From positions 10,654 to 74,653 of IMG/VR virus record IMGVR_UViG_3300036770_002544: a DNA stretch of 64,000 nucleotides, one strand, 5' to 3'. Numbering within the stretch: the stretch's first letter is position 1; each line of letters starts with the position of its first letter. Shown one piece after another: positions 4,095 through 20,811 of the stretch. The notes beneath the pieces were generated by a model. It did not search any database, was not told the DNA's origin, and was given only the letters and a program-made list of their open reading frames with translations. Position numbers and translations under genes: made by a program. The stretch is from a virus (Duplodnaviria > Heunggongvirae > Uroviricota > Caudoviricetes).

Positions 4095-4123
4095 GCCTCC
4101 ACCAAATAAGCAGATGACGTTTC

Positions 4124-4131: not shown

Positions 4132-4159
4132 TGTATAAATAAAACAAAGGAGATCGAGC

Positions 4160-4599: not shown

Positions 4600-4629
4600 A
4601 TTCGAAGTCTAGCAAACTTCAAAGTTTTC

Positions 4630-4703: not shown

Positions 4704-4710
4704 AATTTAT

Positions 4711-4786
4711 TCCTCAGTAGCTCAGTTGGTAGAGTAGCGGACTGTTAATCCGTTGGTCGCTGGATCGTGCCCAGCCTGGGGAGCCA
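4711..4786 (+). tRNA. tRNA-Asn(GTT)
   Basis: Acceptor tcctcag/ctgggga. D-arm tagctcagttggtagagta. Anticodon arm gcgga-CTGTTAA-tccgt. T-arm gctgg-ATCGTGC-ccagc. gCCA. Confidence 0.85.
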
Positions 4787-4794
4787 AACAAAAT

Positions 4795-4870
<76 letters not shown>

Positions 4871-4876
4871 GGATCA

Positions 4877-5909: not shown

Positions 5910-5913
5910 AAAA

Positions 5914-5989
<76 letters not shown>

Positions 5990-6038
5990 AACAAGCCTAC
6001 ACTCAATCCTGCCGCGATGACAGTCCCTGGGCTTTTAC

Positions 6039-6117
6039 ACCACTTTAGCTCAGTTGGACTTAGAGCACTGTGCTACGAACGCAGGGGTCGGGAGTTCGAA
6101 TCTCTCAGGTGGTACCA
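6039..6117 (+). tRNA. tRNA-Arg(ACG)
   Basis: Acceptor accactt/aggtggt. D-arm gctc/gagc. Anticodon arm ctgtg-CTACGAA-cgcag. T-arm gggag-TTCGAAT-ctctc. aCCA. Confidence 0.85.
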
Positions 6118-6242
6118 TTTTGTAATACTTGTGTTTGCCAAAAAGGTAAACCAAAGTATACATTTTTCGGGGCTCGGACGTTTTACAGCGATTCTTTTCT
6201 GCAGAACGTACAAAGATCCACAAGCAAGTAAAACAACAGCAA

Positions 6243-6271
6243 TTGACTCAAAATGACATCTGTTGTATAAT
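6243..6271 (+). promoter_or_regulatory. sigma70-type promoter (TTGACT-N17-TATAAT)
   Basis: ttgactcaaaatgacatctgttgtataat, upstream of the tRNA-Lys pair. Confidence 0.5.
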
Positions 6272-6379
6272 ACATTTTTAATTAGGAACATTGACATGAA
6301 ACGTTCAGCGAAACGATAGTGTCGTCTCAGTACCCTGTATGGTCTGGGATGGCACGTAAAAGACAATTTTTACATCCAT

Positions 6380-6454
6380 CCCTTTGAGATGTTAAGGCAG
6401 CATGCCGGACTCTTAATCCGTGACGTGTGGGTTCGACTCCCACCAGAGGGACCA
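6380..6454 (+). tRNA. tRNA-Lys(CTT)
   Basis: Acceptor ccctttg/cagaggg with G:U pairs. Anticodon loop CTCTTAA. T-arm gtggg-TTCGACT-cccac. aCCA. Confidence 0.7.
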
Positions 6455-6458
6455 TATA

Positions 6459-6535
6459 GGGTTGATAGTTTAATGGCTAAAACATCCGGCTTTTAACCGG
6501 TAAGAGTCAGGGTTCGAATCCCTGTCGACCCACCA
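6459..6535 (+). tRNA. tRNA-Lys(TTT)
   Basis: Acceptor gggttga/tcgaccc. Anticodon arm ccgg-CTTTTAA-ccgg. T-arm caggg-TTCGAAT-ccctg. aCCA. Confidence 0.85.
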
Positions 6536-6668
6536 TATAAAAACATTTTTGACGGGCATCATCGCCAACGCATAGTCGCGGTGCTCTGTTCGGTGACCCT
6601 GGCAGGTTGCGAAAATCTATTGTGCCAGCAATAAGAGAATTATTGAAAATGTTTCTATATGGTATTAT

Positions 6669-6743
6669 GGAGTCGTTAGTTTAGTGGTAAAACCGCGGGT
6701 TGTGATTCCGCTATCACGGGTTCGATTCCCGTACTTCTCCCCA
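6669..6743 (+). tRNA. tRNA-His(GTG) with G-1
   Basis: Anticodon arm gcggg-TTGTGAT-tccgc. D-arm gtt-tagtggtaa-aac. T-arm acggg-TTCGATT-cccgt. 3' end acttctc-c-CCA with an extra 5' G. Two internal acceptor mismatches. Confidence 0.65.
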
Positions 6744-6744
6744 A

Positions 6745-6819
6745 GGTGATATGACGTAGACGGATGCGTAGCGGTTTCATAAGCCGACGAGGTTGGGTCG
6801 GTACCAACTATCACCACCA
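6745..6819 (+). tRNA. tRNA-Met(CAT)-like with non-canonical T-loop
   Basis: Perfect acceptor ggtgata/tatcacc. Anticodon loop TTCATAA. T-arm gttgg-GTCGGTA-ccaac lacks TTC. aCCA. Confidence 0.55.
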
Positions 6820-6820
6820 C

Positions 6821-6895
6821 CGGTCCTTATTTCAATGGATAGAATGCCATGCTTCGAACTTGGCGATGTGGGTTCGATTCCTGCAGGACCGGCCA
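6821..6895 (+). tRNA. tRNA-Arg(TCG), anticodon assignment tentative
   Basis: Perfect acceptor cggtcct/aggaccg. Anticodon loop CTTCGAA. T-arm gtggg-TTCGATT-cctgc. gCCA. Confidence 0.55.
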
Positions 6896-6938
6896 AATGA
6901 TTTGTTAGTGCTGTATATGAACGAATAAATATTTTTTT

Positions 6939-7703
6939 ATGACTATTACTAAATTCACTACTGCACAACAACAGCTTTTGAAATTTGTATTAACGTGTGT
7001 CTCTTCTGTGCTGGGTATCTATGTATACCTAATACTAGGCGGCACCTTACTCAAGGCATTTCTGATATATCTATGTTTTGTATTAGTATCTAGAGTTGCA
7101 AACCTAGGTTATCATAGATGGCTGGCACACAACTTGTTAGAACCTGATTTGTTTGGTAGAATTTTTATACTATGGTGTATGGTAAGTTCGGCGTTAGTGA
7201 AGCCTTTGCCCTATGTCATAGGTCATAGACTGCATCACAAATATTCAGACACTGATAAAGATCCTCATCATCCCGGACTAGGGTTATGGGCTTGCTTGAT
7301 AGGAAACTTTAATGTCGTTGAAAACTTAACAATACCAGTAAAAGATTTGTATAGAAAAAAAGAAGTAATGTTTGTCAATAGATATTACTATCAATTATAT
7401 CTTGCAAACTTGCTATTGTTTTGGTTCATTGACAAAGATATAGTGCTACTAAGTTTCTCACTGTTAAACTTGCGTATGTGGGTCAACATAACTGTGTTCA
7501 ACTATCTTGCACACGGAGGTAAGCACGGAAAATCTCCTAAAAATTTGCCAGCCTGGACTAGTTACGTGTTAGGATATTCGGGAGAACAGTTACACAAAAA
7601 TCATCATGATGATCCTTCGTCTAGCGATTTTGGTAAATTGTCAAGATGGAATTTTGATATCATGTACAAAGTGTACAGCAAAATAGTCAAAGTTAAAAAT
7701 TAA
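6939..7703 (+). CDS. membrane fatty-acid (acyl-lipid) desaturase, delta-9-like
   Basis: Three His boxes HRWLAH, HRLHH, HKNHH. Multiple hydrophobic segments. Confidence 0.8.
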   Translation: MTITKFTTAQQQLLKFVLTCVSSVLGIYVYLILGGTLLKAFLIYLCFVLVSRVANLGYHRWLAHNLLEPDLFGRIFILWCMVSSALVKPLPYVIGHRLHHKYSDTDKDPHHPGLGLWACLIGNFNVVENLTIPVKDLYRKKEVMFVNRYYYQLYLANLLLFWFIDKDIVLLSFSLLNLRMWVNITVFNYLAHGGKHGKSPKNLPAWTSYVLGYSGEQLHKNHHDDPSSSDFGKLSRWNFDIMYKVYSKIVKVKN

Positions 7704-7752
7704 CACTCGGTGATTTCTGTACTACTATTAATCATAGTGTAGGTTATCATCT

Positions 7753-7781
7753 AGTTGACAACAAAACAATCTGCTGTTATA
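7753..7781 (+). promoter_or_regulatory. sigma70-type promoter (TTGACA-N17-TATACT) with palindrome over the -10
   Basis: ttgacaacaaaacaatctgctgttatact. gctgt-tatacta-cagc inverted repeat. Upstream of tRNA-Val. Confidence 0.5.
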
Positions 7782-7818
7782 CTACAGCATGTTCTTTAAA
7801 AATTAAGTTTGATAGTTT

Positions 7819-7903
7819 GCCCCTGTAGCTCAGTGGTAGAGCATCGCTTCGACAAAGCGAGGGTCGGTGGATCGTTCCCACCCAGTGGTACCAGTGTTAT
7901 TTA
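7819..7903 (+). tRNA. tRNA-Val(GAC)
   Basis: D-arm gctc-agtggtag-agc. Anticodon arm tcgct-TCGACAA-agcga. T-arm ggtgg-ATCGTTC-ccacc. cagtggt-a-CCA. Confidence 0.75.
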
Positions 7904-8088
7904 CACTGAGAATCTATCCAGGCCAGTGCCGACATCATGTTGGTAAAATAGCGCATGGTAAGTTTTTCATCGTAAATATCATTGACAAAGATGTAACAAG
8001 CGTCAGCAGTGTCGTTAACTGATAGGTGTATATGCATGTATCCGTTGGCAACTATGAAGTCTCGTGTTTGCATATTTTTATTTATTTT

Positions 8089-8162
8089 GCGGGATTGGCA
8101 TAAGGGTTGTGCAGTAGCCTTCCAAGCTACCCATAGCGGTTCGAGACCGCTATCCCGCTCCA
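8089..8162 (+). tRNA. tRNA-Gly(TCC)
   Basis: Perfect acceptor gcgggat/atcccgc. Anticodon arm gtagc-CTTCCAA-gctac. T-arm agcgg-TTCGAGA-ccgct. tCCA. Confidence 0.8.
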
Positions 8163-8169
8163 CAATTTA

Positions 8170-8244
8170 GGGTGATTAGCTCAGCGGTAGAGTCGCTGCC
8201 TTACACGCAGTTTGTCGGGAGTTCGATCCTCTCATCACCCACCA
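8170..8244 (+). tRNA. tRNA-Val(TAC)
   Basis: Acceptor gggtgat/atcaccc. D-arm gctc-agcggtag-agt. Anticodon arm gctgc-CTTACAC-gcagt. T-arm cggga-GTTCGAT-cctct. aCCA. Confidence 0.85.
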
Positions 8245-8252
8245 ACTTATTT

Positions 8253-8330
8253 CCGAGTGTAGCGCAGTCTGGTTAGCGCATCTGCTTTGGGAGCAGAGGG
8301 TCGTAGGTTCGAATCCTACTACTCGGACCA
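8253..8330 (+). tRNA. tRNA-Pro(TGG)
   Basis: Acceptor ccgagtg/tactcgg. D-arm gcgc-agtctggtta-gcgc. Anticodon arm tctgc-TTTGGGA-gcaga. T-arm gtagg-TTCGAAT-cctac. aCCA. Confidence 0.85.
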
Positions 8331-8337
8331 ATTCAAT

Positions 8338-8415
8338 GTACAGGTGGCAGAGTGGCCCAATGCAAGGGATTGCAAATCCCTAAAGCCGTCGGTTCAAATC
8401 CGACCCTGTACTCCA
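8338..8415 (+). tRNA. tRNA-Cys(GCA)
   Basis: Acceptor gtacagg/cctgtac. Anticodon arm aggga-TTGCAAA-tccct. T-arm gtcgg-TTCAAAT-ccgac. tCCA. Confidence 0.8.
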
Positions 8416-8420
8416 TCTAA

Positions 8421-8510
8421 GGAAGCGTGGTCGAGTGGTCTATGGCTCCGGTCTTGAAAACCGGCGATTACGAAAGTGGTCCGTGAGTTCGAATCTCACC
8501 GCTTCCACCA
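8421..8510 (+). tRNA. tRNA-Ser(TGA), class II
   Basis: Acceptor ggaagcg/cgcttcc. Anticodon arm ccggt-CTTGAAA-accgg. Long variable arm. T-arm gtgag-TTCGAAT-ctcac. aCCA. Confidence 0.85.
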
Positions 8511-8515
8511 TATAT

Positions 8516-8591
8516 GCCGCGGTAGCTCATCAGGTAGAGCAGCAGACTGAAAATCTGTGTGTGGCTGGTTCGAGTCCAGCTCGTGGCACCA
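8516..8591 (+). tRNA. tRNA-Phe(GAA)
   Basis: Acceptor gccgcgg/tcgtggc. D-arm tagctcatcaggtagagca. Anticodon arm gcaga-CTGAAAA-tctgt. T-arm ctggt-TCGAGTC-cagc. aCCA. Confidence 0.85.
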
Positions 8592-8592
8592 A

Positions 8593-9234
8593 TCAATGTC
8601 TATTAGGATCTCGAGTTTTTTCAAACTCTGGCACATGTTCGTTGCAACCAGGAAACCATGCTGGGGCAGGTGGAAGATCACACACTTCTCTAGTGAGATC
8701 TATCAACAAAATGAGACGCCGCTCTGAAGTGTTGTTCCAAACACTATGCAACTTTTGATTGTTGAAAGAAAAGACATCATCCCATAGTACAATTTCGTTT
8801 TCAACTTCGAAACCAATGTCGCCATCAGGAACGTACAAAGGAATATGGATGCGAATGCTTTTGGCATCTCTGTTTTCTATGCCAGTGTGTCTGTAAATAA
8901 TAGAGTTGGGTTCTACAATACTGTAACCAGCTAGGTGGCAGTGTTGTCCAAAAGCTTCAACTAATGAAAATGCAGTGGGATACCGAAGTCTATTGGATTC
9001 TGCAAGAACTCCTGATATATGTTTGATGCCTGATATTTTCCAGGCATTTTCTTTATCGTACAAGGTAGAATTTTGTCCAGTAGGATTTTGACGGTAAGGC
9101 ACGCTAGTAAATTTTTCTCCCGACTGGAAGTCTGGGTGCGCTTTGACAAAGTCTGCAAGTAAAGCAGGTTGTAACGCTCTAAACAATGCAGCAAATTTAA
9201 CTTCGTCGCCGCGATAGATATTTTTAAGTTCCAT
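8593..9234 (-). CDS. aspartyl/asparaginyl beta-hydroxylase-family (AspH-like, 2OG-Fe oxygenase cupin) protein
   Basis: Motif HTGIENRDAKSIRIHIPL matches the AspH H-x-G...N...R-x-H-x-PL signature. Paralog of 10868-11545. Confidence 0.6.
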   Translation of the reverse strand: MELKNIYRGDEVKFAALFRALQPALLADFVKAHPDFQSGEKFTSVPYRQNPTGQNSTLYDKENAWKISGIKHISGVLAESNRLRYPTAFSLVEAFGQHCHLAGYSIVEPNSIIYRHTGIENRDAKSIRIHIPLYVPDGDIGFEVENEIVLWDDVFSFNNQKLHSVWNNTSERRLILLIDLTREVCDLPPAPAWFPGCNEHVPEFEKTRDPNRH

Positions 9235-9291
9235 AGATACTTTCTTTAAAAATATTTATTGATCGTTATGGTACATTTATAATTTAACATT

Positions 9292-9366
9292 GTCCCTGTA
9301 GTTCAATGGATAGAACCGGTTCCTCCTAAGAACAAAATATCAGTTCGATTCTGGTCAGGGATACCA
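9292..9366 (+). tRNA. tRNA-Arg(CCT)
   Basis: Acceptor gtccctg/cagggat. D-arm gttcaatggatagaac. Anticodon loop CTCCTAA. T-arm atcag-TTCGATT-ctggt. aCCA. Confidence 0.75.
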
Positions 9367-9371
9367 AGCAT

Positions 9372-9448
9372 GCCCTGGTGGTGGAATTGGCAGACACACT
9401 GCGTTGAGGTCGCAGGTTCTACGGGTTCGAGTCCCGTCTAGGGTACCA
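9372..9448 (+). tRNA. tRNA with anticodon GAG (Leu-decoding) but short variable loop
   Basis: Acceptor gccctgg/ctagggt. Anticodon arm ctgcg-TTGAGGT-cgcag. T-arm acggg-TTCGAGT-cccgt. aCCA. At 77 nt it lacks the class II long arm expected of bacterial tRNA-Leu. Confidence 0.65.
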
Positions 9449-9802
9449 AGTTTTGTAGTAACCAGAGTCCTGTGTAAAAGGTGTTGCGGACGTCATGCGC
9501 TCTTTTTATCGCATGGGTCAATAAAGATCGAAGCGCAAACTAATAAGGTTGTGTCCTTGCCTACTACAGATTAGTTTTGCAAACAATAAAAACGTGTAGG
9601 GGTAATACCCCTTGAAGCTCTGTGCAGAGATGCACATCTTCTATGGATCAGTTGGTGGGATGAGAGGTCCTTCCCTGTTGCCGGTGTCAAGAGTTATCCA
9701 TTGTGGGAGCCGGAGTGCCAACCCAGGTCGATAGTTTACAGCCACACGCCCTAGCGAAACCGGATTGTTTGCAATTTTTTATTGTTGTTGAGAAGAAAAG
9801 AA

Positions 9803-10018
9803 ATGTATAAAATAGCAGAAAAAGAATTTGCCAATCTGGAGTTGGCAATGGCACATGCCAGGCAGTTAAATGAGTTTGTAACTATTGCTGGACCCGACTT
9901 TGAAGTTTGTGGCCGCTTTGGGGTAGATAGCGTTGAACGCGGGCTGTGCCCTGATGGTATTGCATACGATTGGAACAAGGCCAGTCGTACAGGTCGCGTA
10001 CAACGCGAACGAGTCTAA
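9803..10018 (+). CDS. hypothetical small protein
   Basis: ORF following a roughly 330-nt structured noncoding stretch. Weak RBS. Confidence 0.3.
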   Translation: MYKIAEKEFANLELAMAHARQLNEFVTIAGPDFEVCGRFGVDSVERGLCPDGIAYDWNKASRTGRVQRERV

Positions 10019-10108
10019 CGGAGGGTTAACTGGGCTGGGCCCAGCACTGTCTCGAAAACAGATGGACTGTGAAAACGGTTGGAGTTCGATTCTGCCATCC
10101 CTCTTCCA
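10019..10108 (+). tRNA. tRNA-like element (Ser CGA-type loop) with non-canonical T-arm
   Basis: Acceptor ggagggt/tccctct-t-CCA. Hairpin ctgt-CTCGAAA-acag. D region ctggg-ctgggc-cccag. The T-arm does not fold canonically. Confidence 0.3.
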
Positions 10109-10113
10109 ATTTT

Positions 10114-10184
10114 TGGCTCACTCTAGCTGATCTTGCGGGGTCCAAACTCTCAAGTCTCGGGTGCGATTCCTGAAGGGCCAGCCA
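10114..10184 (+). tRNA. tRNA-like element (acceptor plus T-arm only clearly foldable)
   Basis: Acceptor tggctca/agggcca-g-CCA. T-arm tcggg-TGCGATT-cctga. No clear anticodon arm. Confidence 0.3.
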
Positions 10185-10241
10185 TATACCGGTTTACACA
10201 AAACCGTAATATCAAGTATAATATATACTTGTGCAACCAAT

Positions 10242-10318
10242 GCCCCTGTGATGGAATTGGTATACGTGTCGGATTCAAAATCCGAATTTTGCGGGTTCGA
10301 GTCCCGCTGGGGGCACCA
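10242..10318 (+). tRNA. tRNA with anticodon CAA (Leu-decoding), short variable loop
   Basis: Acceptor gcccctg/tgggggc with G:U pairs. Anticodon arm tcgga-TTCAAAA-tccga. T-arm gcggg-TTCGAGT-cccgc. aCCA. Confidence 0.6.
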
Positions 10319-12165: not shown

Positions 12166-12985
12166 CGTCGACCTAACAGATTTAAAAACAAGAGGTTTTG
12201 CGGTTGTAAAGAATTTTCTAACCGACTTGGAAATTAAACCACAATTACAAAATTACGAGATTCAAAAAAACAATCAATCGTCCCAAATCAAAATAAAAAA
12301 TTACTCTGTGATCAAAGCAAGCACTGAGCATAATTTAACTGACAAAATTAAACGTTTACTTGACAAAGTTGCTCAACAAACAGACATATCTATAAATCTT
12401 GTGGGACCAACAGGTGTGTATTTTGACACACAACTAGTAAATACTGGATGGCATCAAGACCATTTATCTTATTATACTTGGCAAACAGGCTACCATCAGA
12501 TAAACTTTTGGATACCTTTGATCAAGCCGTGCCCAACCATGTCAGGGCTTTGCGTGGTTCCAATGGATACGTTAAAAACACACATAGGCGATTTGTTCGA
12601 ACAACACATATTGGATCAAGGTGCAAAGAGATTTATACCAACAGACAACCGTACTCATGTGATTGACGACGACTCCGGACATGAGTTTGAGTTACCAGTT
12701 AATCTCAATGATATTGCAGTGGCTCCAGAACTGCAAGCAGGTGATTTGCTGATAGTCAGAGGAGATGTAATACATACTACCCAGGATTCTGACACCAATC
12801 GTGTTGCCCTTGCAATAAGAGCAGTAGACGGAAACAAGGCAGTTGATCGAACAAAGTTTCAACAGCAGTGCAACATGAAAAAAATGTTGCTCGACGCTGA
12901 TTCGGGCACTAAAAAAATTAACAATTACTTTGCTGCTGGACACAATCAGTTTGTCATACACGACCTTTATAGAGGACGTATTTGA
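12158..12985 (+). CDS. phytanoyl-CoA dioxygenase (PhyH)-family 2OG-Fe(II) oxygenase
   Basis: GWHQDHLSY motif, and a distal His in GDVIHTTQDS. Confidence 0.65.
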   Translation: MIDVDLTDLKTRGFAVVKNFLTDLEIKPQLQNYEIQKNNQSSQIKIKNYSVIKASTEHNLTDKIKRLLDKVAQQTDISINLVGPTGVYFDTQLVNTGWHQDHLSYYTWQTGYHQINFWIPLIKPCPTMSGLCVVPMDTLKTHIGDLFEQHILDQGAKRFIPTDNRTHVIDDDSGHEFELPVNLNDIAVAPELQAGDLLIVRGDVIHTTQDSDTNRVALAIRAVDGNKAVDRTKFQQQCNMKKMLLDADSGTKKINNYFAAGHNQFVIHDLYRGRI

Positions 12986-13031
12986 CCTGGCGTACTACAA
13001 TTTAAAACATATACCTAGGAGTTGCTAGTTA

Positions 13032-13331
13032 ATGATTGGAATTGACTTAGTTGATGTTCGTAGATTTGAGGCAACAACAAGACTGCCTCAATTTATCAAA
13101 CGATTCCATGTTAGTGGGGACTCGCCACTGGATGTAGCAAAAACTTGGGCATGTTTGGAAGCCATTATCAAAGCAGAAGATCAACCGTTTGACCCAACAA
13201 GTATTAGTATTCAATTTGTCGCAGGACAACGACCGCAAGTCAATGATCCGCACAATATACTAAGCAAGCCGTATATACTAAGTCTGAGCCATGATGCAGA
13301 TCTGGTCATCGCAGTAGCATTGCGGACTTGA
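13032..13331 (+). CDS. acpS: holo-ACP synthase-like 4'-phosphopantetheinyl transferase
   Basis: N-terminal MIGIDLVDVRRFE and LSLSHDADLVIAVAL resemble AcpS signatures. SD aggag 8 nt upstream. Confidence 0.6.
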   Translation: MIGIDLVDVRRFEATTRLPQFIKRFHVSGDSPLDVAKTWACLEAIIKAEDQPFDPTSISIQFVAGQRPQVNDPHNILSKPYILSLSHDADLVIAVALRT

Positions 13332-13356
13332 CAAGTGTTGTATTTTTTGTTATACT
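13328..13356 (+). promoter_or_regulatory. sigma70-type promoter (TTGACA-N17-TATACT)
   Basis: ttgacaagtgttgtattttttgttatact. Shares the TATACTACA box with promoters 7753 and 19741. Confidence 0.5.
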
Positions 13357-13378
13357 ACACAATCACAAAAGGTGCTAA

Positions 13379-13699
13379 ATGAGCAACGATCTAGCAAAAT
13401 TCTTAAACAGCCGCAGGCGCCATAAAACTGACGTAGCAATTGCCCGGCAAGTTAAAATTGCCAAGAGTCACGGCTTGGGATTTAACGACAAACACATTAA
13501 AGAACCACATCGGCATGCTAAACATCATGCTATGGACTGCGGTAACCCACAATGTGGACTATGCGGCAATCCACGACATGTTCGCAAAGGTGGTTCAGGT
13601 GGTGGCGGACTAACTGTACAAGAACGTCGACAGCATCAAGATCTTGAACGCACCACCGATCGACACTCAAACGGCATTAAACCAAAGGACTCAGAATGA
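13379..13699 (+). CDS. hypothetical basic Cys/His-rich protein
   Basis: ORF with SD aaaaggtgctaaATG. Gly-rich linker GGSGGGG. Confidence 0.45.
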   Translation: MSNDLAKFLNSRRRHKTDVAIARQVKIAKSHGLGFNDKHIKEPHRHAKHHAMDCGNPQCGLCGNPRHVRKGGSGGGGLTVQERRQHQDLERTTDRHSNGIKPKDSE

Positions 13700-13968
13700 A
13701 AATTAACCCCAAAGACCCTACCATTGGCCTTTCAAATCAAGCCGCTGTTGACGCAATCGGCAACCGTTACGATCTAGTTTTGATTGCTGCTCGTCGAGTG
13801 CGAGAACTGCATCGCGGTGATGCTCGTAAGGTAGACGAGCACCGATGCGGTGCTACATTAACTGCACTGCTAGAAATTGAAGAAGGCAAAGTAGGTCGTG
13901 ACTATTTGTACAAAGAAACCGACGTTGAGACTCGCCGAACAAGAAAACATCGTACTAGTACTTTGTAA
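13696..13968 (+). CDS. rpoZ: RNA polymerase omega subunit (RpoZ)-like protein
   Basis: AVDAIGNRYDLVLIAARRVRELHRGD...TLTALLEIEEGKV parallels E. coli RpoZ ([23 protein letters not shown]...IALREIEEGLI). Confidence 0.5.
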   Translation: MKINPKDPTIGLSNQAAVDAIGNRYDLVLIAARRVRELHRGDARKVDEHRCGATLTALLEIEEGKVGRDYLYKETDVETRRTRKHRTSTL

Positions 13969-13981
13969 TTACTTTTACTGA

Positions 13982-14010
13982 TTGCCCAAAATCTCCTGAT
14001 GTGCTATAAT
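13982..14010 (+). promoter_or_regulatory. sigma70-type promoter (TTGCCC-N17-TATAAT) embedded in an inverted repeat
   Basis: ttgcccaaaatctcctgatgtgctataat. The inverted repeat aaaatctcct / aggagatttt spans the -10 and the SD. Confidence 0.55.
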
Positions 14011-14032
14011 AACGCATATTAGGAGATTTTTT

Positions 14033-14251
14033 ATGTTTGACTGGCTTAAACAATTGTTCGGCAAAGGTACTGTTCGTGTTGAATTTGAGGCAGTCGACGA
14101 TAAGTTTGATGTGCTCAAGGGCAGTGCAAAAGTGCCATATATCGGCCGATATGACGAAGATGAAGTCAAGCGCATTGTGCGAAACAAAATTGCAGTGCAG
14201 CATGGCGTTATCGTTACCAAAATTAATGTAGTTGCCCGCGACGGGTTTTAA
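14033..14251 (+). CDS. hypothetical protein
   Basis: SD aggag. First gene of a tightly coupled operon. Confidence 0.5.
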   Translation: MFDWLKQLFGKGTVRVEFEAVDDKFDVLKGSAKVPYIGRYDEDEVKRIVRNKIAVQHGVIVTKINVVARDGF

Positions 14252-14260
14252 GGAAATAAC

Positions 14261-14674
14261 ATGCCCTGGATTCAGAACGTTAGCATGAGCGATGTCAAGC
14301 AAGGCTTGCACTTCGACGCCGGTGTTAACAGTATGCTGATCCAAATTGTTGATCCGGCATACGAGTTTCCCGTTCCGTTGAAGAAGTTCAAGGAAGTACA
14401 CCAGTTTGAGTTCTTGGACGTTGAGGCAACGGATAAGGAATTTGAGGAGTTTGCTTGCACACAAGAGCAGGCTGCAGAACTTGTTCGCTTGCTCAAGCAT
14501 GCATTGTCTAATCGTATGAACGTTGTAGTTCACTGCCACGCCGGTATTTGCCGATCGGGTGCAGTCTGCGAAGTGGGTACTATGATGGGGTTCGATGATA
14601 CAGAAGTGTTTCGTGCGCCTAATCTGTTGGTCAAGCATTTGATGATGAAGCAATTAGGATGGACTTATGAATAA
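14261..14674 (+). CDS. protein tyrosine / dual-specificity phosphatase
   Basis: CX5R active-site motif VVHCHAGICRSGAV. SD aaggaaataacATG. Confidence 0.7.
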   Translation: MPWIQNVSMSDVKQGLHFDAGVNSMLIQIVDPAYEFPVPLKKFKEVHQFEFLDVEATDKEFEEFACTQEQAAELVRLLKHALSNRMNVVVHCHAGICRSGAVCEVGTMMGFDDTEVFRAPNLLVKHLMMKQLGWTYE

Positions 14675-14975
14675 AGTAATTCGGGATGGAATGGTTGCAG
14701 TGCTGTACTCTCCCGAACACGGTGCAGGCTGGTGGACCTGGAATACCGAGCACACAGATATGTTGTTTGACCCGGGCATGGTTGGCCTAGTTGAAAAGTA
14801 CGATGTTGAGCAGATGCGTGTTTATGCAGAACTCAAGTGGCCCGATGCTTACTTAGGTGGATTGGACAGCCTACAAATCGAGTGGCTCCCAGAAGGCTCA
14901 AAGTTTATTGTAGAAGAATACGATGGGTTTGAAAGTATTCTTACTATCGAGAACACTGTTTGGATAACAGCATGA
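14667..14975 (+). CDS. hypothetical protein (C-terminus ESIL...W resembles the downstream array family)
   Basis: ATGA start/stop overlap with both neighbours. Confidence 0.45.
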   Translation: MNKVIRDGMVAVLYSPEHGAGWWTWNTEHTDMLFDPGMVGLVEKYDVEQMRVYAELKWPDAYLGGLDSLQIEWLPEGSKFIVEEYDGFESILTIENTVWITA

Positions 14976-15136
14976 AAAACCCTTTGCAGTGGCAATACAA
15001 TGGTGCGGCGCCAATGCAAGTACTCATAGCCTGGTGTGAGCAACACATTCCCGATGAGTATGTTTATCACGGTTGGGAAAGTATTTTGTTTCTAACTGAA
15101 CGTGCAAAGACATTATTTTTGCTGAGGTGGTCATGA
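14972..15136 (+). CDS. LRWS-family small protein, array member 0 (54 aa, below the ORF-track cutoff)
   Basis: Hand translation MKNPLQWQYNGAAPMQVLIAWCEQHIPDEYVYHGWESILFLTERAKTLFLLRWS. ATGA overlap upstream; TGAGGTGGTCATGA junction downstream. Confidence 0.5.
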   Translation: MKNPLQWQYNGAAPMQVLIAWCEQHIPDEYVYHGWESILFLTERAKTLFLLRWS

Positions 15137-15372
15137 AACCCTGTGAACTACAACCAATGATAGTCCGAGCCGTGGAAAGAATAGGAATAAATGATTATTG
15201 GCAACTTCCTCCGGAAGCAAGAGTAATTACCGGCAATCCTAAATATGACGCACAACTTCATTATATGTTAGTTGAGTTTGGGGTGGAAGTAGAGTTAGAT
15301 CGATACGGCATGAAAGATTACCGTGTAGTTGATGAACAAAAATTCATGATGTTTTTGTTGAGGTGGTCATGA
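15133..15372 (+). CDS. LRWS-family small protein, array member 1
   Basis: Ends ...EQKFMMFLLRWS. Junction tgaggtggtcATGa. Confidence 0.6.
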   Translation: MKPCELQPMIVRAVERIGINDYWQLPPEARVITGNPKYDAQLHYMLVEFGVEVELDRYGMKDYRVVDEQKFMMFLLRWS

Positions 15373-15581
15373 CAGCACAATACAGTCGTAGCCGAGATCT
15401 TGTTCATCGTGTGGAAGTGCCACATTCGGGTGGTTGGGTCTGGGGCGAGGATCAAAGGTTTGAATGGTGCAAACAGAACTGCCAGGACGATTATCGTGGC
15501 GCAATGTTTCGCCGAGACCGAACTGTGTGGCATTTTAAATCACAGAAGGATGCTGTGATGTTTGCGCTGAGGTGGTCATGA
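15369..15581 (+). CDS. LRWS-family small protein, array member 2
   Basis: Ends ...QKDAVMFALRWS. Identical junction. Confidence 0.6.
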   Translation: MTAQYSRSRDLVHRVEVPHSGGWVWGEDQRFEWCKQNCQDDYRGAMFRRDRTVWHFKSQKDAVMFALRWS

Positions 15582-15817
15582 CAATACCCGAACATTACAA
15601 CCATCGAGTACAAGTAAAGTTAAAATTGCGAGACATCTTTGAACTTGAACATAGACTCGAGGAATTAAATTATATCCGCGCTTGGTTAGACGAATTAGTA
15701 GAATGGCAACCGGATGCGTTTACGATAAAATATTATGATCGAGGAAATGGTGCTGTAATCGATGTTTGGTTTGCCGATGAACGACATGCTATGATTTGTG
15801 CGTTGAGGTGGTCATGA
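15578..15817 (+). CDS. LRWS-family small protein, array member 3
   Basis: Ends ...ERHAMICALRWS. Identical junction. Confidence 0.6.
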   Translation: MTIPEHYNHRVQVKLKLRDIFELEHRLEELNYIRAWLDELVEWQPDAFTIKYYDRGNGAVIDVWFADERHAMICALRWS

Positions 15818-16014
15818 AATACTGGAACAAAGACAAACGGATTCGCCAGCAGAACTGGTATGCAGTCCCATCGGGTAACAGGCGGCCCTATGCTGACACC
15901 AAACGCGAGTTACAACTATTTGACAGTCCGGGTAAGTTTTATCTATACTACGGCAGTAGCACTATTTGGTTTGAGCGTGAACAAGATGCATTGTGGTGGA
16001 GATTGAAATCATGA
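15814..16014 (+). CDS. LRWS-family small protein, array member 4
   Basis: Ends ...EQDALWWRLKS. ATGA overlap. Confidence 0.55.
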   Translation: MKYWNKDKRIRQQNWYAVPSGNRRPYADTKRELQLFDSPGKFYLYYGSSTIWFEREQDALWWRLKS

Positions 16015-16199
16015 AAGTTTATCAAGTTGCAGGTTATCCAAAGAATCATTATTTTGTCAAAGACTTTCAAGAGTTATTGAACATAATGAGTTGGATGACC
16101 AAGAACGATGTAGGTTACTTGCACGAATCTAGCAGCATACATGGCTATGGGTTTAGTGTTAAAAAGAATTTTGAATGGTTTAGTTTGAAGTGGTTATGA
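16011..16199 (+). CDS. LRWS-family small protein, array member 5
   Basis: Ends ...KNFEWFSLKWL. ATGA overlap. Confidence 0.55.
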   Translation: MKVYQVAGYPKNHYFVKDFQELLNIMSWMTKNDVGYLHESSSIHGYGFSVKKNFEWFSLKWL

Positions 16200-16405
16200 G
16201 TTACGAAGTTGTAATACCGTATGATCCTGCTTGGGAACCACTAGACTGGGCCAAGGAACATTGTCCTAGTTATATTACAAACCGAGCAATTGCTCAAGAA
16301 ACAAAATATGATATAATAGTTCGTGCGTACTATAACGATTACGATGTTGTCTATTATTTCAGCGAAGGAAAGGATGCAACAGCGTTTGCATTGAAGTGGA
16401 AATGA
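16196..16405 (+). CDS. LRWS-family small protein, array member 6
   Basis: Ends ...GKDATAFALKWK. ATGA overlap. Confidence 0.55.
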   Translation: MSYEVVIPYDPAWEPLDWAKEHCPSYITNRAIAQETKYDIIVRAYYNDYDVVYYFSEGKDATAFALKWK

Positions 16406-16656
16406 AACTAATAAAATTAAATCAAAGACACAACCTAGGACGCAGAGGTTTTAAGTATGCGTTTGTGTTTACTCGTTACGGCCCTGATGTGCCCAACGAA
16501 TTCAAGGTAGAACGGTTAGTAAAAGATGCAGAAGGTATGGGTACATTTTATGGCAATACCTTTTATGGTAAGCGCAAGGATCGTAGTTCTCGTTCGCCTT
16601 ACTACATTGGGTTCAACCACGAATCAACTGCTACTCTAGTGCAGTTACAATTGTAA
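16402..16656 (+). CDS. small protein, terminal array member (divergent, lacks the C-terminal motif)
   Basis: ATGA-coupled to member 6. Followed by the palindrome gtaatact-ca-agtattac. Confidence 0.5.
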   Translation: MKLIKLNQRHNLGRRGFKYAFVFTRYGPDVPNEFKVERLVKDAEGMGTFYGNTFYGKRKDRSSRSPYYIGFNHESTATLVQLQL

Positions 16657-16670
16657 TACTCAAGTATTAC

Positions 16671-16699
16671 TTGCCCAAAAAGCAGTTTTCTGCTATAAT
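16671..16699 (+). promoter_or_regulatory. sigma70-type promoter (TTGCCC-N17-TATAAT)
   Basis: ttgcccaaaaagcagttttctgctataat. SD aaaggagg follows. Confidence 0.55.
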
Positions 16700-16724
16700 A
16701 AGCAATTAAAGAAAGGAGGCGACT

Positions 16725-17339
16725 ATGCCCGCAGTATTTTTAGTTAGCGACACGCACTTTGGTCACACAGGCGTATGTCGCTTTACCCGAGAGGACGGGG
16801 TTACAAAGTTACGGCCCTGGGACTCGGCCGAAGAAATGGACGAGGCGATGATCAAGTCTTGGAACGAGCGTGTTCGTCCCAACGATAAGGTCTATCACTT
16901 GGGCGATGTGGTTATTAACCGCCGTGCGTTAAAGACATTAAGCCGCTTAAACGGCGACAAAGTTTTAATCCGCGGCAACCACGACATCTTCCGTGACACA
17001 GAGTACATGGAATATTTCCGCGAGTTACGTGCATACCACGTTATGAACGGAATGATCTTAAGCCATATTCCTGTACACGAAGCAAGTTTAGGGCGCTTTG
17101 GTACTAACATTCACGGTCACTTACATGCCAGTCGTGTAAAGCGGGCTCGCGGTGTTGATGCAAAGACTGGTGCAGTGTTATACAGCGATGAAAACGATTT
17201 ACGTTATCACTGTGTATGTGTAGAGCAAACACCCGACTTTGCACCTATCTTGTTAGAAGATGTGTACAAGCGCATCGAAGCCGAAGGCGGAACAGTAGGG
17301 TTCAATCCCAATGCTTACGGCAACGGTAGTGCCATGTGA
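16725..17339 (+). CDS. calcineurin-like metallophosphoesterase (Ser/Thr phosphatase-like)
   Basis: DTHFGH, GDVV, GNHD, GHLH motifs. SD aaggagg. Confidence 0.75.
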   Translation: MPAVFLVSDTHFGHTGVCRFTREDGVTKLRPWDSAEEMDEAMIKSWNERVRPNDKVYHLGDVVINRRALKTLSRLNGDKVLIRGNHDIFRDTEYMEYFRELRAYHVMNGMILSHIPVHEASLGRFGTNIHGHLHASRVKRARGVDAKTGAVLYSDENDLRYHCVCVEQTPDFAPILLEDVYKRIEAEGGTVGFNPNAYGNGSAM

Positions 17340-17346
17340 GACCGGT

Positions 17347-17709
17347 ATGCAGTTTATCCTAGATGAACAGTATATTTGCGATGTAACGGTTAGAACGGAA
17401 CACGATTTTATCAAGGACCGTTCTAACCCTACAAACGAAGATCTTATTAAAATCCTTAAAGGATGGGACAAGAGTCTAACCATTAGTAACAAAGATCACG
17501 ACGAGTTTACAAAACTACGCAACCAACTTGCAGAACTGGGGTATATCGAAATCCAACGAGGTTGGTGGAATGGCGATCGTGTACTAAAACCTTTTATGCT
17601 TAACGAGTGGCGGTTCCATAAGGGTCATAAATTCCCTAGTGCGGCGGCTTTGCGTAACAGTATAGAGTGTGCTCGTAAGCATGGTTGGAAGGGTATTAGT
17701 AGTTTATAA
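17347..17709 (+). CDS. hypothetical protein
   Basis: ORF directly after the phosphoesterase. Confidence 0.4.
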   Translation: MQFILDEQYICDVTVRTEHDFIKDRSNPTNEDLIKILKGWDKSLTISNKDHDEFTKLRNQLAELGYIEIQRGWWNGDRVLKPFMLNEWRFHKGHKFPSAAALRNSIECARKHGWKGISSL

Positions 17710-17793
17710 GGTAAGAGGCAAGAACCAAATGCTTGCACTATATTCGTAAATGATATTTTAAAACGCAGGTTTATACGTGCAATTAAATACAAT

Positions 17794-18138
17794 ATGCGTC
17801 TCGAAAAAAGTGTTGCTGTTGCAGTTGAATTTGCTGAAAAAGTTGCTCTGGCTCGAGTGCGATTTAAAAATGCAAAACTTTCCCAAATGGATATGGATTG
17901 GTACGAATCAAAATGGAAAACATTTTCAAATTCTGCCGAAGTAGATCACATGCTCAACACGTTAACTGATGCTTTATCGTTGTATTGGGACGTTGATCAG
18001 GAACTAAAATTAGACCCTACAAATTTAAAATTATTTTTAAACAGGGCAGAAATGACCAGACAAATTAGCAAAATTAGGCACAAGTTATTTTTGTTAGCAT
18101 CTGATGCTAACACAAACAAAGCATCAGATGGCATATGA
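17794..18138 (+). CDS. hypothetical protein
   Basis: ORF. Confidence 0.4.
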   Translation: MRLEKSVAVAVEFAEKVALARVRFKNAKLSQMDMDWYESKWKTFSNSAEVDHMLNTLTDALSLYWDVDQELKLDPTNLKLFLNRAEMTRQISKIRHKLFLLASDANTNKASDGI

Positions 18139-19693
18139 TTGTATTATTTTTACAGATGTAACTTACACAAATCTGGTGTATAAGCCAATGGGTGCTTATA
18201 AGTTAGCAAATCATCTGAGATCCAGTGGGTACAGTTGTTTAGTAGTTGATCATTTTCATACTTTTACTCAGCAGCAAATTTTAGATATTATTGCTGCGTC
18301 AGTAGGACCAGAAACTAAATTTGTTGGGTTTAGTATTGCTTTCTTCAATAGTGTAGAAGGTACTAATCCAATGGATCCGATATCTGATAATACCTATAAA
18401 CCGTTAGAATATAATCAATCGTTTTGTCCGCAAGGACAGGCATTTGAAATTGCATTGGTCTCTGCCATTCACGATATCAACAGCCATTGCAAAATAGTAT
18501 TAGGTGGTGCGGCCAGGATCAGCAATCAGATTAAAAATCCCAGGGTAGATTACGTGATTTCGGGATTCGCCGAAGTTGCTATATTAGATTTAGTGCATTC
18601 TTTGGAGCTTGGTCAGGTTCCGGGTACAGCAGTAAAAAATATATGGGGAACGCACATCATAGATGGTGGATCAGCTGAGTCATTTGACTATCAGCACAGC
18701 GAGATGGTATGGCAACCCGAAGATGTGGCTGGTATAAAAGTTTTACAACTCGATGTATCTCGTGGCTGCAAATTTAACTGTACTTTTTGCGACTGGAGCA
18801 TGCGTGGTACCAAGAATAACAAATGGACACGCGAAATAGACGTTCTTGCTTCAGAACTTCAGCGCAATTATGATCAGTATGGCATATATCGATACTTTGT
18901 ACATGACCATACTTTTAACGAAAGTGACTACAAACTCAATGTAGTCAAACAAGCAGTCAAACAATTAACATTTCAGCCCATCATCTGGTGTCACGTCAGA
19001 CCAGATTTACTAGTTAAATACCCCAACCGTACTGATACCATGTACGAAGTTGGTGTCAGGAGCATGATGATGGGTATCGAGACCCTGGACCCAGATGTGG
19101 CCAAAACTGTAGGCAAAGGTCTTGCACCAGAAAAAATCATTGCTGAATTAAAAAATATTCAACAACGCTACGGCAACGAGTTGTTGACCCATGGTAATTT
19201 TGTCATTGGCTTACCAGGCGAATCTATTGACAGTGTTCTTGCTACCGCTGCACGATTAGAAAACGGAGATATTTCGTTGCACCATTGGAGCTACAATGCA
19301 TTGATGATCAGCACAGATCATAACAATTGGTGGGGGTCTACATACGAACAAGATCCGGCCAGATACGGCTACACAGAAAACAAAAACACAATCACGACAG
19401 GATTTAATATTGATTATAGAAAAAATTCACTGATGAACTGGCGCAATGATCATATGACCTTTGAACAAGCTATGCATCTGAACAAAAAGTTATACGACTC
19501 GGCAGCCGATAACCCAGCCTATCTGGTAGACAGCATGGTCAGTTGGGCATTGATGGGTTTCACTGACCTAGACTTTAAAGGCATACAGAAGTTGCGTCCC
19601 CGGGATATTGATTGGTTTTCAGTGTCCAAGCAACGATTGCACTATCTATACGATTACAAGAAAAATATAATTAAACATGTGCACGGTAAATAA
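18128..19693 (+). CDS. radical SAM protein with N-terminal B12-binding-like domain (class B-like)
   Basis: CKFNCTFC Cx3Cx2C at about residue 210. The N-terminal region is Rossmann-like. Confidence 0.65.
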   Translation: MAYDCIIFTDVTYTNLVYKPMGAYKLANHLRSSGYSCLVVDHFHTFTQQQILDIIAASVGPETKFVGFSIAFFNSVEGTNPMDPISDNTYKPLEYNQSFCPQGQAFEIALVSAIHDINSHCKIVLGGAARISNQIKNPRVDYVISGFAEVAILDLVHSLELGQVPGTAVKNIWGTHIIDGGSAESFDYQHSEMVWQPEDVAGIKVLQLDVSRGCKFNCTFCDWSMRGTKNNKWTREIDVLASELQRNYDQYGIYRYFVHDHTFNESDYKLNVVKQAVKQLTFQPIIWCHVRPDLLVKYPNRTDTMYEVGVRSMMMGIETLDPDVAKTVGKGLAPEKIIAELKNIQQRYGNELLTHGNFVIGLPGESIDSVLATAARLENGDISLHHWSYNALMISTDHNNWWGSTYEQDPARYGYTENKNTITTGFNIDYRKNSLMNWRNDHMTFEQAMHLNKKLYDSAADNPAYLVDSMVSWALMGFTDLDFKGIQKLRPRDIDWFSVSKQRLHYLYDYKKNIIKHVHGK

Positions 19694-19740: not shown

Positions 19741-19769
19741 TTGACATGTAGATGTCTTTACTGTAGAAT
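19741..19769 (+). promoter_or_regulatory. sigma70-type promoter (TTGACA-N17-TAGAAT) with palindrome
   Basis: ttgacatgtagatgtctttactgtagaat. ctgtag-aatatac-tacag inverted repeat over the -10. Confidence 0.5.
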
Positions 19770-19842
19770 ATACTACAGAACGCCTGCCGTATGCAGAGTT
19801 CTTCTGCAAGCTAATACAACCATAATATTTTTAGGAATTAAC

Positions 19843-20811
19843 ATGATTCGATCATTCTCACGCCTGGTTGCGTTTGCGCTAGCCAGTATTGCTATCACTT
19901 CTGCTAATGCAGAAGTCTACCCTTCAAAACCCATCAATATCGTTGTGCCATACAACGCTGGCGGCGGTATGGATAACGTTATCCGTAAAATGACCACCGA
20001 ATTAGAAAAGGAACTTGGGCAGCCAGTTACTGTTGTAAATCAAGCAGGAGCTGGTGGTAATGTTGGCACTCGTAAACTTGCTGAATCTGCCCCTGATGGT
20101 TATACCATTGGTATGAGCGGTGGCTCTACGTTTGGCACTAATCAGGTATTCAACAAAGAAGTACCATATGATGCAGGCAAACAATTTGAGTTTGTTAGCA
20201 TGGTTGGTACTTTGCCACGTATTGTTGTGGTCAGTGCTGCAGGCCCAATTAAAACAATCGACGACCTAAAGAAAGAAGCACTAACTAATCCCAAGTTTAC
20301 AATGGCGGCTGCACTCAACAGTCCAGACATCTTGATGGGTGAAATTTTCAAACACAAAATGCTAGGCAAGCCAGTTATTGCCAGTTACGGTGCAGCAACT
20401 AACACCATGATGGTCGATTTGGTTGGTGGCCGTATTCATGCAGTATGGAACAGCGTTCCAGCATTGAATGCTTGCTTGACTAACAATACCTGTGTAGCAC
20501 TTGCAGTTACTGGCAAACAACGTCTCAAAGGCTTGCCCAATGTCCCAACCTTTGCCGAAGTGGGTCTTGCTGAAGTAGATGCTCCTGCTTACTATGGCAT
20601 CGTTACACCCAAAGGTGTTGCTGCTGACAAGATTGCCAAACTAAACCGTGCGTTTAACCGTGTAATTCAAAATGAAAAAGTTGCCAGCGATCTTGATAAA
20701 ATGGGTGTGGTTACTATTGTGAGTTCTCCTGCCGAAACCAAAGAACAACACTTACAAGGTATTGCTAATGCCAAGAAGTATGCCGCAGTGGCAAACATTG
20801 TGGCAAAATAA
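19843..20811 (+). CDS. TctC-family (tripartite tricarboxylate transporter) periplasmic substrate-binding protein with signal peptide
   Basis: Signal peptide MIRSFSRLVAFALASIAITSANA. Typical Bug/TctC-like region YPSKPINIVVPYNAGGGMDNVIR. Confidence 0.65.
   Translation: MIRSFSRLVAFALASIAITSANAEVYPSKPINIVVPYNAGGGMDNVIRKMTTELEKELGQPVTVVNQAGAGGNVGTRKLAESAPDGYTIGMSGGSTFGTNQVFNKEVPYDAGKQFEFVSMVGTLPRIVVVSAAGPIKTIDDLKKEALTNPKFTMAAALNSPDILMGEIFKHKMLGKPVIASYGAATNTMMVDLVGGRIHAVWNSVPALNACLTNNTCVALAVTGKQRLKGLPNVPTFAEVGLAEVDAPAYYGIVTPKGVAADKIAKLNRAFNRVIQNEKVASDLDKMGVVTIVSSPAETKEQHLQGIANAKKYAAVANIVAK

Follow-up and report, generated by a model that had tools for sequence, protein, structure and literature searches.

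In a 64,000 nt stretch of the IMG/VR virus record IMGVR_UViG_3300036770_002544 (Caudoviricetes; positions 10,654 to 74,653 of the record), hereafter called the window and used for all numbering below, eight consecutive small open reading frames (ORFs), m1 to m8, of 54-84 aa lie back to back on the + strand at 14972-16656. Successive ORFs overlap through an ATGA shared by stop and start codons at 7 of 7 junctions (14972 to 16402). By profile comparison, the first seven (14972-16405) are paralogs of a single family, and the codons of their conserved C-terminal motif also spell a sequence of the Shine-Dalgarno (SD) type in front of the next gene. We consider a modular array of seven cassettes joined by dual-coding junctions to be the best explanation of the locus overall, and a likely one.

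Junction codons and their complementarity to 16S rRNA

The 14-mer TGAGGTGGTCATGA is present at the m1|m2, m2|m3, m3|m4 and m4|m5 junctions (15123-15136, 15359-15372, 15568-15581 and 15804-15817, + strand). As a first-pass annotation of this DNA had noticed, the four copies are identical. The sequence occurs nowhere else in the 64 kb. It is composed of the last 2 nt of a Leu codon, AGG (Arg), TGG (Trp), TCA (Ser) and the overlapping ATG/TGA. The codons at the window junctions read CTG/TTG-AGG-TGG-TCA-TGA (L-R-W-S-stop), and the general form is YTG-AGG-TGG-(T/G)CA-TGA (L-R-W-S/A-stop). The degenerate form TGARGTGGNNATGA was found six times in the window versus 0.03 times expected from shuffled sequences. 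The other junctions had been described as degenerate versions of the same motif, which holds for the weaker copies at 16186-16199 and 16392-16405 but not for m5|m6, where the motif is missing. At this position m5 ends in WWRLKS (agattgaaatcATGA), having lost the C-terminal Trp together with the SD; its orthologs elsewhere end in LRWS, LRWA or LKWV.

The hexamer GAGGTG is a perfect complement of the 3′ end of 16S rRNA, and 9 nt can pair, one of them as G·U, when the Ser codon is included. At the four identical junctions, the spacing to the ATG is 3 nt from GAGGTG and 5 nt from GAGG, and the calculated anti-SD duplex energy is -14.1 kcal/mol, compared with means of -3.4 kcal/mol for the other gene starts of the window and -3.2 kcal/mol for random 20-mers drawn from it. 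The other overlapped junctions of the window range from -0.3 to -6.4 kcal/mol. Junctions carrying GAAGTGG are weaker (-5.9 and -3.7 kcal/mol), and the m5|m6 junction has a displaced GGAG 9 nt upstream of the next ATG (-7.9 kcal/mol).

Codon choice depends on a following start codon

In 46 long ORFs of the window, 5.7% of the 803 Arg codons are AGG, as are 2 of the 36 inside the array ORFs; at the window junctions, AGG encodes Arg in 4 of 4 cases. In 21 related loci with 101 distinct canonical junctions, 80 of 81 Arg codons were AGG. At the third codon position, G was present in 88% of junctions for the Leu codon and in 92% for the Arg/Lys codon. Because orthologs are separated by a synonymous divergence (dS) of ~1, this constancy is not attributable to shared ancestry.

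We examined how AGG usage varies with the context of the Trp codon in 445 further distinct members from 92 IMG/VR stretches, from which the junctions used for retrieval had been removed. The proportion of AGG among Arg codons was 0.86 when TGG was followed by nn-ATG, 0.82 when GTG or TTG took the place of ATG at the same spacing, 0.69 with an ATG at another short spacing, 0.38 when the next start was further away and 0.17 when no start was nearby (Fisher exact test of the canonical context versus the last two, p=2e-8). Another 47 members have no Trp in their last six residues and fall outside these classes. Members that have the C-terminal Trp without a nearby start keep Arg or Lys before it in 19 of 19 cases, with Arg encoded by CGN or AGA in 10 of 12 and Lys by AAA. 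L-(R/K)-W is therefore a feature of the protein.

This raises the alternative that LRWS is kept for the C-terminal helix alone and that its likeness to an SD is incidental. Such a constraint would account for the retention of L(R/K)W in ~1,358 diverged clusters, in members without a downstream start and in the homolog of Sinorhizobium phage Phosso (see below), and it agrees with the lack of an SD at other overlapped genes of the window. It leaves unexplained why AGG rises to 86-99% at the junction over a background of 5.7%, why G-ending Leu codons are preferred, and why AGG falls to 17% exactly when no start follows; we regard it as very unlikely. Since AGG is this frequent with a start at that spacing and this rare without one nearby, its choice appears to be driven by the SD. 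The proposal that the LRW(S/A) codons double as an SD-type sequence is thus upheld insofar as codon bias and duplex energy point to an extra constraint at the nucleotide level, and an SD function of the junction is its probable basis. The amino acids themselves do not seem to be there for the SD: the C-terminus lies one synonymous step from a strong SD, and this step would have been fixed in the array lineage.

Members and extent of the family

Family membership was assessed with a hidden Markov model (HMM) named A5, built from 50 sequences (m3 and 49 diverse relatives, with m3 as the sole member from the window), against 858 ORFs of the window. It detected m1, m2 and m4-m7 at E=1e-9 to 2e-5. 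The first cassette, m1 (14972-15136, 54 aa, C-terminus FLLRWS, E=1.4e-9), is below the usual ORF cut-off and had been proposed as a gene nevertheless; it proved to be a real ORF with an ortholog in the close relative L022. The second, m2 (15133-15372, 79 aa, FLLRWS, E=6.7e-6), has orthologs including the proteins P0025 and P0051 and is missing in L022. The most widely conserved cassette is m3 (15369-15581, 70 aa, FALRWS), with >20 orthologs at 76-93% identity. It is followed by m4 (15578-15817, 79 aa, CALRWS, E=3.9e-6), with orthologs in L005, L007 and L015, m5 (15814-16014, 66 aa, E=1.6e-5), m6 (16011-16199, 62 aa, FSLKWL, E=4.1e-9), with many orthologs, and m7 (16196-16405, 69 aa, FALKWK, E=1.9e-9). 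Outside the motif, pairwise identity among the paralogs is only ~15-35%.

The first-pass annotation had counted eight members, of which seven stand. The eighth, m8 (16402-16656, 84 aa, + strand), matched neither of the two family HMMs at E<=10, and a profile-profile comparison of its own family with the array family by hhalign gave 2% probability, by which m8 as a diverged array member was ruled out. It belongs to a separate conserved family of 13 homologs with 43-95% identity and the invariant end ...PYYIGFNxESTATLVQLQL, none of them annotated, and it occupies the final operon position both in the window and in L022.

When 1.84 billion representatives were searched exhaustively with a family profile, 1,358 clusters (50% identity) scored E<=1e-3. 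Nearly all cluster members are 55-120 aa in length, with the domain at the extreme C-terminus and ending in L(R/K)W. Conservation at the protein level extends beyond the junction, as F-x-x-(E/D)-x-D-A-x-x-F-x-L-(R/K)-W with an upstream helix W-C-x-E-x-(F)G. The family had not been recognized in the first-pass annotation, and nothing significant was found in Pfam-A, PHROGs v4, NCBIfam, PADLOC and PDB sequences, neither with the window members nor with 50-92 relatives as queries; matches were sporadic and sub-threshold, and two relatives matched PF07068 outside the family domain, in N-terminal extensions. In sum, neither a known domain family nor a segmental duplication devoid of C-terminal conservation in the proteins was found.

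Few relatives were found among cultured phages. Comparison of window positions 13000-19000 with INPHARED by blastn returned only a 68-nt match at chance level and no near relative, and tblastn of cultured phages with two diverse relatives as queries returned no match. The family consensus gave one weak match among cultured phages, in Sinorhizobium phage Phosso, which the HMM then confirmed (XYS97803.1, E=1.1e-10). The Phosso protein ends in FKMRWASQ with CGT as its Arg codon, has no ATGA junction and is the sole family member among the HMM-scanned ORFs of a 6.2-kb stretch. A match in Agrobacterium phage Atu_ph07 was weak (E=0.3) and only possibly represents the same family or fold.

Elsewhere in the window, the ORF at 36189-36506 (+ strand, 105 aa, C-terminus FFKLKWK) is a possible solitary member; its stop is TAA, and the next ATG follows 1 nt on. 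Its E-value was 2e-8 with an HMM containing it and 0.04 with an independent HMM, because of which we treat its membership as tentative. Small + strand ORFs also overlap one another at 28114-28926 and 29219-29413; this second group includes the pieces IKWCRENLGP..., ...STQSWFLLRY... and ...IEWCKGEYG.... Family-like ORFs of this group scored E=2e-4 to 0.08 with an independent HMM, among them a weak diverged ORF with a C-terminal extension at 28446-28670 (+ strand, IKWCRENLGP...ITIYIRDQADVDLY, E=2.3e-4), and they may be degenerate or very diverged family members.

Two annotations among the relatives were also noted. The proteins P0057 and P0059 bear the JGI name 'transcription antitermination factor NusG'; they are m6 orthologs with an N-terminus over-extended into the upstream cassette and without a NusG domain, and the name is probably an annotation artefact. 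The L020 ORFs at 6679-7059 and 7931-8302 and the proteins P0114, P0117 and P0195 have N-terminal extensions that match PF07068 (Gp23, the T4 major capsid protein), e.g. ...ILASEIVGVQPMTDTT. These matches sit outside the family domain, and the fusion of a capsid fragment to the small domain could hint at an association with the capsid.

Cassette order and indels among related loci

A search of IMG/VR with a two-junction pattern retrieved 92 stretches, with ~0 expected, from contigs of up to 400 kb, and 717 HMM members were found in them. The search for junction-linked arrays elsewhere that had been suggested in the first-pass annotation was thus rewarded with the junction and the family in at least 92 contig stretches. 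Related contigs carry larger arrays of the same type: short contigs hold at least 3 cassettes, one 15-kb IMG/VR stretch holds 23, and in L020 27 cassettes occupy 7.8 kb of a 364-kb contig and are followed by a Metallophos gene. The carriers are uncultivated, mostly jumbo-sized phages.

When the members of 19 loci were clustered into orthogroups (m3 being group A), the same cassettes appeared in differing order between loci. The order reads ". J A I F B Q" in the window, ". R E A J B L F G M C I S" in L007, "... N I. C Q A H" in L005, "D H B A V. C" in L017 and ". A G. E F B O C L" in L010. The pair J-A of the window is A-J in L006, L007 and L009, F-B is B..F in L002, L007 and L014, and Q and I are found on either side of A. 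The neighbors of m3 differ accordingly, with ~10 kinds upstream and a dozen downstream.

The closest relative found, L022, has the same operon with 88-96% nucleotide identity over 13965-16798. It differs from the window by the missing m2 and by one additional cassette between m6 and m7. At both indels, the flanking alignments overlap within the junction repeat, in TTTTTGyTGAGGTGGTCATGA (~21 nt) and TGAAGTGGTTATGAGTTA (18 nt), respectively, from which we place the crossover inside the repeat. Another indel, of an m2-type cassette, distinguishes L007 from L014. Two-domain fusions or chimeras also exist as single ORFs (P0090 and P0092; L006 786-1094, an m2-type joined to another type; L012 5326-5577 and 5741-6064), which suggests that crossovers occur inside the conserved C-terminal helix as well. 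They are apparent products of crossover or stop loss at or near the junction.

The +1 frameshift site of the bacterial prfB gene has an SD-like element shortly before an in-frame UGA. The SD upstream of the in-frame UGA at the junctions recalls this arrangement, and two-domain fusions of the family are present in databases (P0090, P0092) and as the L006 fusion cassette, so that an internal SD by UCA-UGA might be thought to drive frameshifting or readthrough into multi-domain proteins. However, the next cassette is read in the -1 frame of the one before it, tRNA-Ser could not re-pair on G-UCA-UGA by slipping either way, an ATG of its own starts every cassette right at the overlap, and the observed fusions are continuous ORFs, that is, gene fusions. 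Programmed recoding was accordingly set aside as extremely improbable.

The identical 14-mers could also be functionless leftovers of recent segmental duplication or gene conversion. Four identical junctions within one array and the observed cassette indels would suit this explanation, and tandem arrays commonly show unequal crossing-over. The paralogs, on the other hand, are too diverged outside the motif for recent copies, and hundreds of distinct cassettes, spread over at least 92 contig stretches, still have the junction at a dS of ~1. In front of ATGA the junction has a variable dinucleotide, which is associated with the cassette or orthogroup (p=0.017) and not with the genome or locus (p=0.81). 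Because it follows the cassette, there is no homogenization within genomes, and concerted evolution or gene conversion of the junction was rejected on this test; recent duplication as the source of the identical junctions is highly improbable.

A further possibility is that the junction is kept in the first place as a signal for cassette mobility, and that its likeness to an SD is secondary or exapted. The indel breakpoints within the repeat and the permuted cassette order speak for it, as does the loss of the motif at array ends, where there is no partner repeat, and a precedent exists in the promoter-early stem-loop (PeSL) repeats that shuffle ORFans in T4-type phages (PMC2839356). For recombination any sequence would do, but the one present complements the anti-SD almost perfectly and lies at the best spacing, 5 nt, and AGG is still frequent before GTG/TTG (0.82) or a slightly displaced start (0.69), in other words at each kind of start in need of an SD. 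The two roles are not mutually exclusive, and a junction kept primarily for recombination is unlikely, if less so than the other alternatives.

The surroundings of the array vary as well. In the 338-kb relative L002, the array lies between a DUF2201 VWA/metallopeptidase gene (3930-5288) and a homolog (9071-9370) of the window gene 13379. The same two genes are found in the window at 30350-31621 and 13379-13699, 17 kb apart, by which the neighborhood of the array differs between relatives.

Predicted fold and selection

AlphaFold2 models of m3 (predicted local distance difference test score, pLDDT, 70; predicted template modeling score, pTM, 0.53) and m7 (pLDDT 76, pTM 0.65) show the same order of elements, beta1-alpha1-beta2-beta3-alpha2. 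The predicted core of the family is thus beta-alpha-beta-beta-alpha, with the last helix ending in ...(E/D)xDAxxFxL(R/K)W. Compared with the ferredoxin-like sandwiches of the ACT, RRM and KH-like type, in which beta-alpha-beta-beta-alpha-beta has four strands, the fourth strand is missing, and sequence identity is 7-12%. The best matches in the viral structure library BFVD are uncharacterized phage proteins (probability 1.0, TM 0.7-0.8); among proteins of the same family or fold are A0A6J7WHX3 and A0A6J5LK55 of uncultured Caudovirales, both annotated as uncharacterized. The proteins contain ~6% Trp and 17.5% aromatic residues, and nearly every conserved residue is hydrophobic or caps a helix, which is consistent with a common core with differing surfaces. 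The isoelectric point (pI) ranges from 4.7 to 9.9 within the window array, with a family median of ~6.5-6.9. A uniform charge, as of a DNA mimic or a nucleic-acid binder, was ruled out by this spread.

The divergence of the paralogs had been attributed to diversifying selection. This is contradicted by orthologous cassettes of nine orthogroups on related contigs, whose median ratio of nonsynonymous to synonymous divergence (dN/dS) is 0.10-0.28 at a dS of ~0.7-2.2 (0.105 for m3), so that diversifying selection among orthologs was discarded. Because dN/dS is low at such dS, each paralog is an old and individually conserved protein, and the low identity between paralogs appears to reflect age rather than current positive selection.

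As for function, the proteins may be small single-domain binders with an aromatic core that address different host or defense targets, and a role in host takeover or anti-defense is a conjecture that we put forward with reserve. Our best guess is that the array proteins are made together, and probably early.

Proposed mechanism

In the dual-coding array that we favor, one mRNA from a promoter candidate at 13982 would cover the operon. The 13-14 nt of each junction would end one protein, spell the SD GAGGTG(G) 5 nt before the ATG and overlap stop with start. A ribosome that ends cassette n could restart at the overlapping AUG of cassette n+1, by termination-reinitiation aided by the SD; de novo initiation at each junction would be the alternative. 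Translational coupling between cassettes is accordingly predicted from the arrangement of the junctions. As the ribosome-binding site for cassette n+1 is carried by cassette n, any cassette order would be expressed. The junction repeats (18-21 nt) would in addition offer microhomology for the deletion, insertion and reordering of cassettes, in frame and with expression kept, presumably through general or microhomology recombination. In its widest form, which is speculative, the junction would be a universal adaptor: a recombinase-independent cassette system, or an integron- or PeSL-like engine placed inside coding sequence, through which >1,300 clusters of binders, as candidate takeover or anti-defense factors, could be gained, dropped, duplicated and reordered by jumbo phages.

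Several points weigh against this reading. Most window genes, including other ATGA-overlapped pairs, have no detectable SD, by which overlapped translation in this phage would be generally SD-independent. The promoter, the use of the SD and the coupling are deduced from sequence only. The correlation of AGG with a start would also be expected if the junction were kept mainly as a recombination substrate, and 18-21 nt is short for homologous recombination. The permuted order could partly have arisen from duplication and differential loss, which would still be recombination at the level of junctions. Finally, most comparison loci are metagenome assemblies and may contain repeat-assembly errors. 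In this regard, the junction repeat is shorter than typical final assembly k-mers, and four arrangements recur in independent assemblies (L006/L007, L008/L009, L011/L013 and L020/L021).

The scarcity of SDs extends to ~38 gene starts outside 13000-17400 (e.g. 20815, 21434, 22633, 50687 and 51946), whose mean duplex energy is like that of random sequence. SD use may be confined to one gene class, or some starts may be mis-assigned; the scarcity may also be a clue to the host.

Operon structure and wider context

The operon is headed by a sigma-70-like promoter candidate at 13982-14010 (+ strand, TTGCCCAAAA-N13-TGCTATAAT), which matches the consensus at 10 of 12 positions and has an extended -10. 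A second promoter-like copy at 16671-16699 (+ strand) heads the metallophosphatase gene just after the operon. The full 29-nt pattern occurs in 2 copies in the window versus 0 expected, as a consensus match only, and activity at 13982 and the timing of transcription are predictions from this match. The two copies bracket a 12-gene unit of which the array is the distal part. Within the array, one terminator-like site was found on the - strand (16297-16282) and none on the + strand, and an Rfam search of 12500-18000 found no RNA family.

The first gene of the operon (14033-14251, + strand, 72 aa) is conserved in L022. It is followed by a dual-specificity/Tyr phosphatase-like gene (14261-14674, + strand, 137 aa; PF22785, 32.3 bits with a cut-off of 27), which has an HCxxGxxRS motif and scores under the cut-offs of DSPc and Y_phosphatase, and by a 102-aa gene outside the family (14667-14975, + strand) with only a weak match to PHROG 16527, whose stop overlaps the m1 ATG as ATGA. 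Downstream of the array lies a metallophosphoesterase gene (16725-17339, + strand, 204 aa; Metallophos, 28.6 bits with a cut-off of 21.5) with a strong SD, AAGGAGG. Pfam thus agrees with the phosphatases that had been suggested on both sides, of the dual-specificity type at 14261 and Metallophos at 16725. The operon had also been described as ATGA-coupled from 14033 onwards, which is correct from 14972 but not for the upstream part, where the first two genes are separated by 9 nt (14251/14261) and the next two overlap by 8 nt (14667/14674).

The extended -10 element TGCTATAAT was found 7 times in the window versus 0.86 times expected, always on the + strand (14002, 16691, 26705, 29018, 29988, 30314 and 36175), and its copies are probably host-type, perhaps early, phage promoters. 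One of them (36175-36183) stops only 5 nt short of the start codon at 36189, where the family-like ORF begins, which points to an mRNA with little or no leader.

The window has 26 tRNA genes on the + strand at 2455-10318 that cover most amino acids and would supplement translation, and with these and many radical-SAM/SPASM and auxiliary genes it looks like part of a jumbo phage. Near the operon are a homolog of the RNA polymerase omega subunit (13696-13968; PF01192, E=1e-10), to our knowledge unusual in a phage, and a weak homolog of 4′-phosphopantetheinyl transferase (13032-13331). A TctC-type tricarboxylate-binding receptor (19741-20811, E=5e-38), like these two a homolog of a host-type protein, may hint at a proteobacterial host. 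At 44371-55787 on the - strand, at least 4 radical-SAM/SPASM enzymes cluster with a carbamoyltransferase, in what looks like a peptide- or sugar-modification pathway.

Significance and comparison with known systems

The analysis describes a large unannotated phage family of ~1,358 clusters, with arrays of up to 27 genes, for which it provides a profile and a predicted fold, with Phosso as the one cultured phage from which to start. It is also a clean case of dual coding, in which the amino-acid motif can be separated from codon choice by comparing members with and without a downstream start. It offers a testable route by which hyperplastic small-gene regions of phages could stay expressed during shuffling, the expression signal borne by the upstream gene being at the same time the microhomology for recombination. 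Should the proteins be binders or anti-defense factors, the arrays would amount to a ready catalogue of them, searchable by way of the junction.

Textbooks describe coupling through ATGA in bacterial and phage operons, where the upstream gene contains the SD. The array shares with this the 4-nt overlap, an SD normally spaced within the 3′ part of the upstream ORF and the codons skewed toward the SD. It differs in that the codons of the SD are those of the defining C-terminal motif of the family and recur at each unit, in up to 27 genes. Because the SD is a property of the family and not of one gene pair, the units are interchangeable.

The array resembles integrons in its small, promoterless and interchangeable cassettes, in the single upstream promoter and in gain, loss and reordering at a conserved boundary. 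The boundary of the array, however, is a direct repeat in coding sequence and not an imperfect palindrome, and its cassettes are mutually homologous. No attC-like repeat or integrase was noted with the array, though no search was aimed at these.

Among described systems, the closest is the PeSL of T4-type phages, a repeat that flanks small non-essential ORFans and mediates their modular shuffling, for which mini-circles have been shown (Arbiol et al., 2010, PMC2839356; Comeau et al., 2014, PMC4122927). The PeSL is intergenic and ~100 bp long, contains a sigma-70 promoter and a terminator stem-loop, and ends with an SD and a start codon (PMC2839356; PMC4122927). In both systems, the boundary repeat bears the expression signal of the next gene and marks the indel breakpoints between close relatives. 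In contrast to the PeSL, the array junction has no promoter hexamers, the strong promoter-like motifs lying outside the array at 13982 and 16671, and it has neither a stem-loop nor intergenic space, given the 4-nt overlaps. Its repeat is 14-21 nt, consists of the last 3-4 codons and the overlapped stop and start, and lies inside coding sequence. Whereas each PeSL ORFan is its own transcription unit, the array is made up of paralogs of one family on one polycistron. What is new relative to these systems is the coincidence of the SD with the family-defining C-terminal motif at every unit, in a protein family that had not been described.

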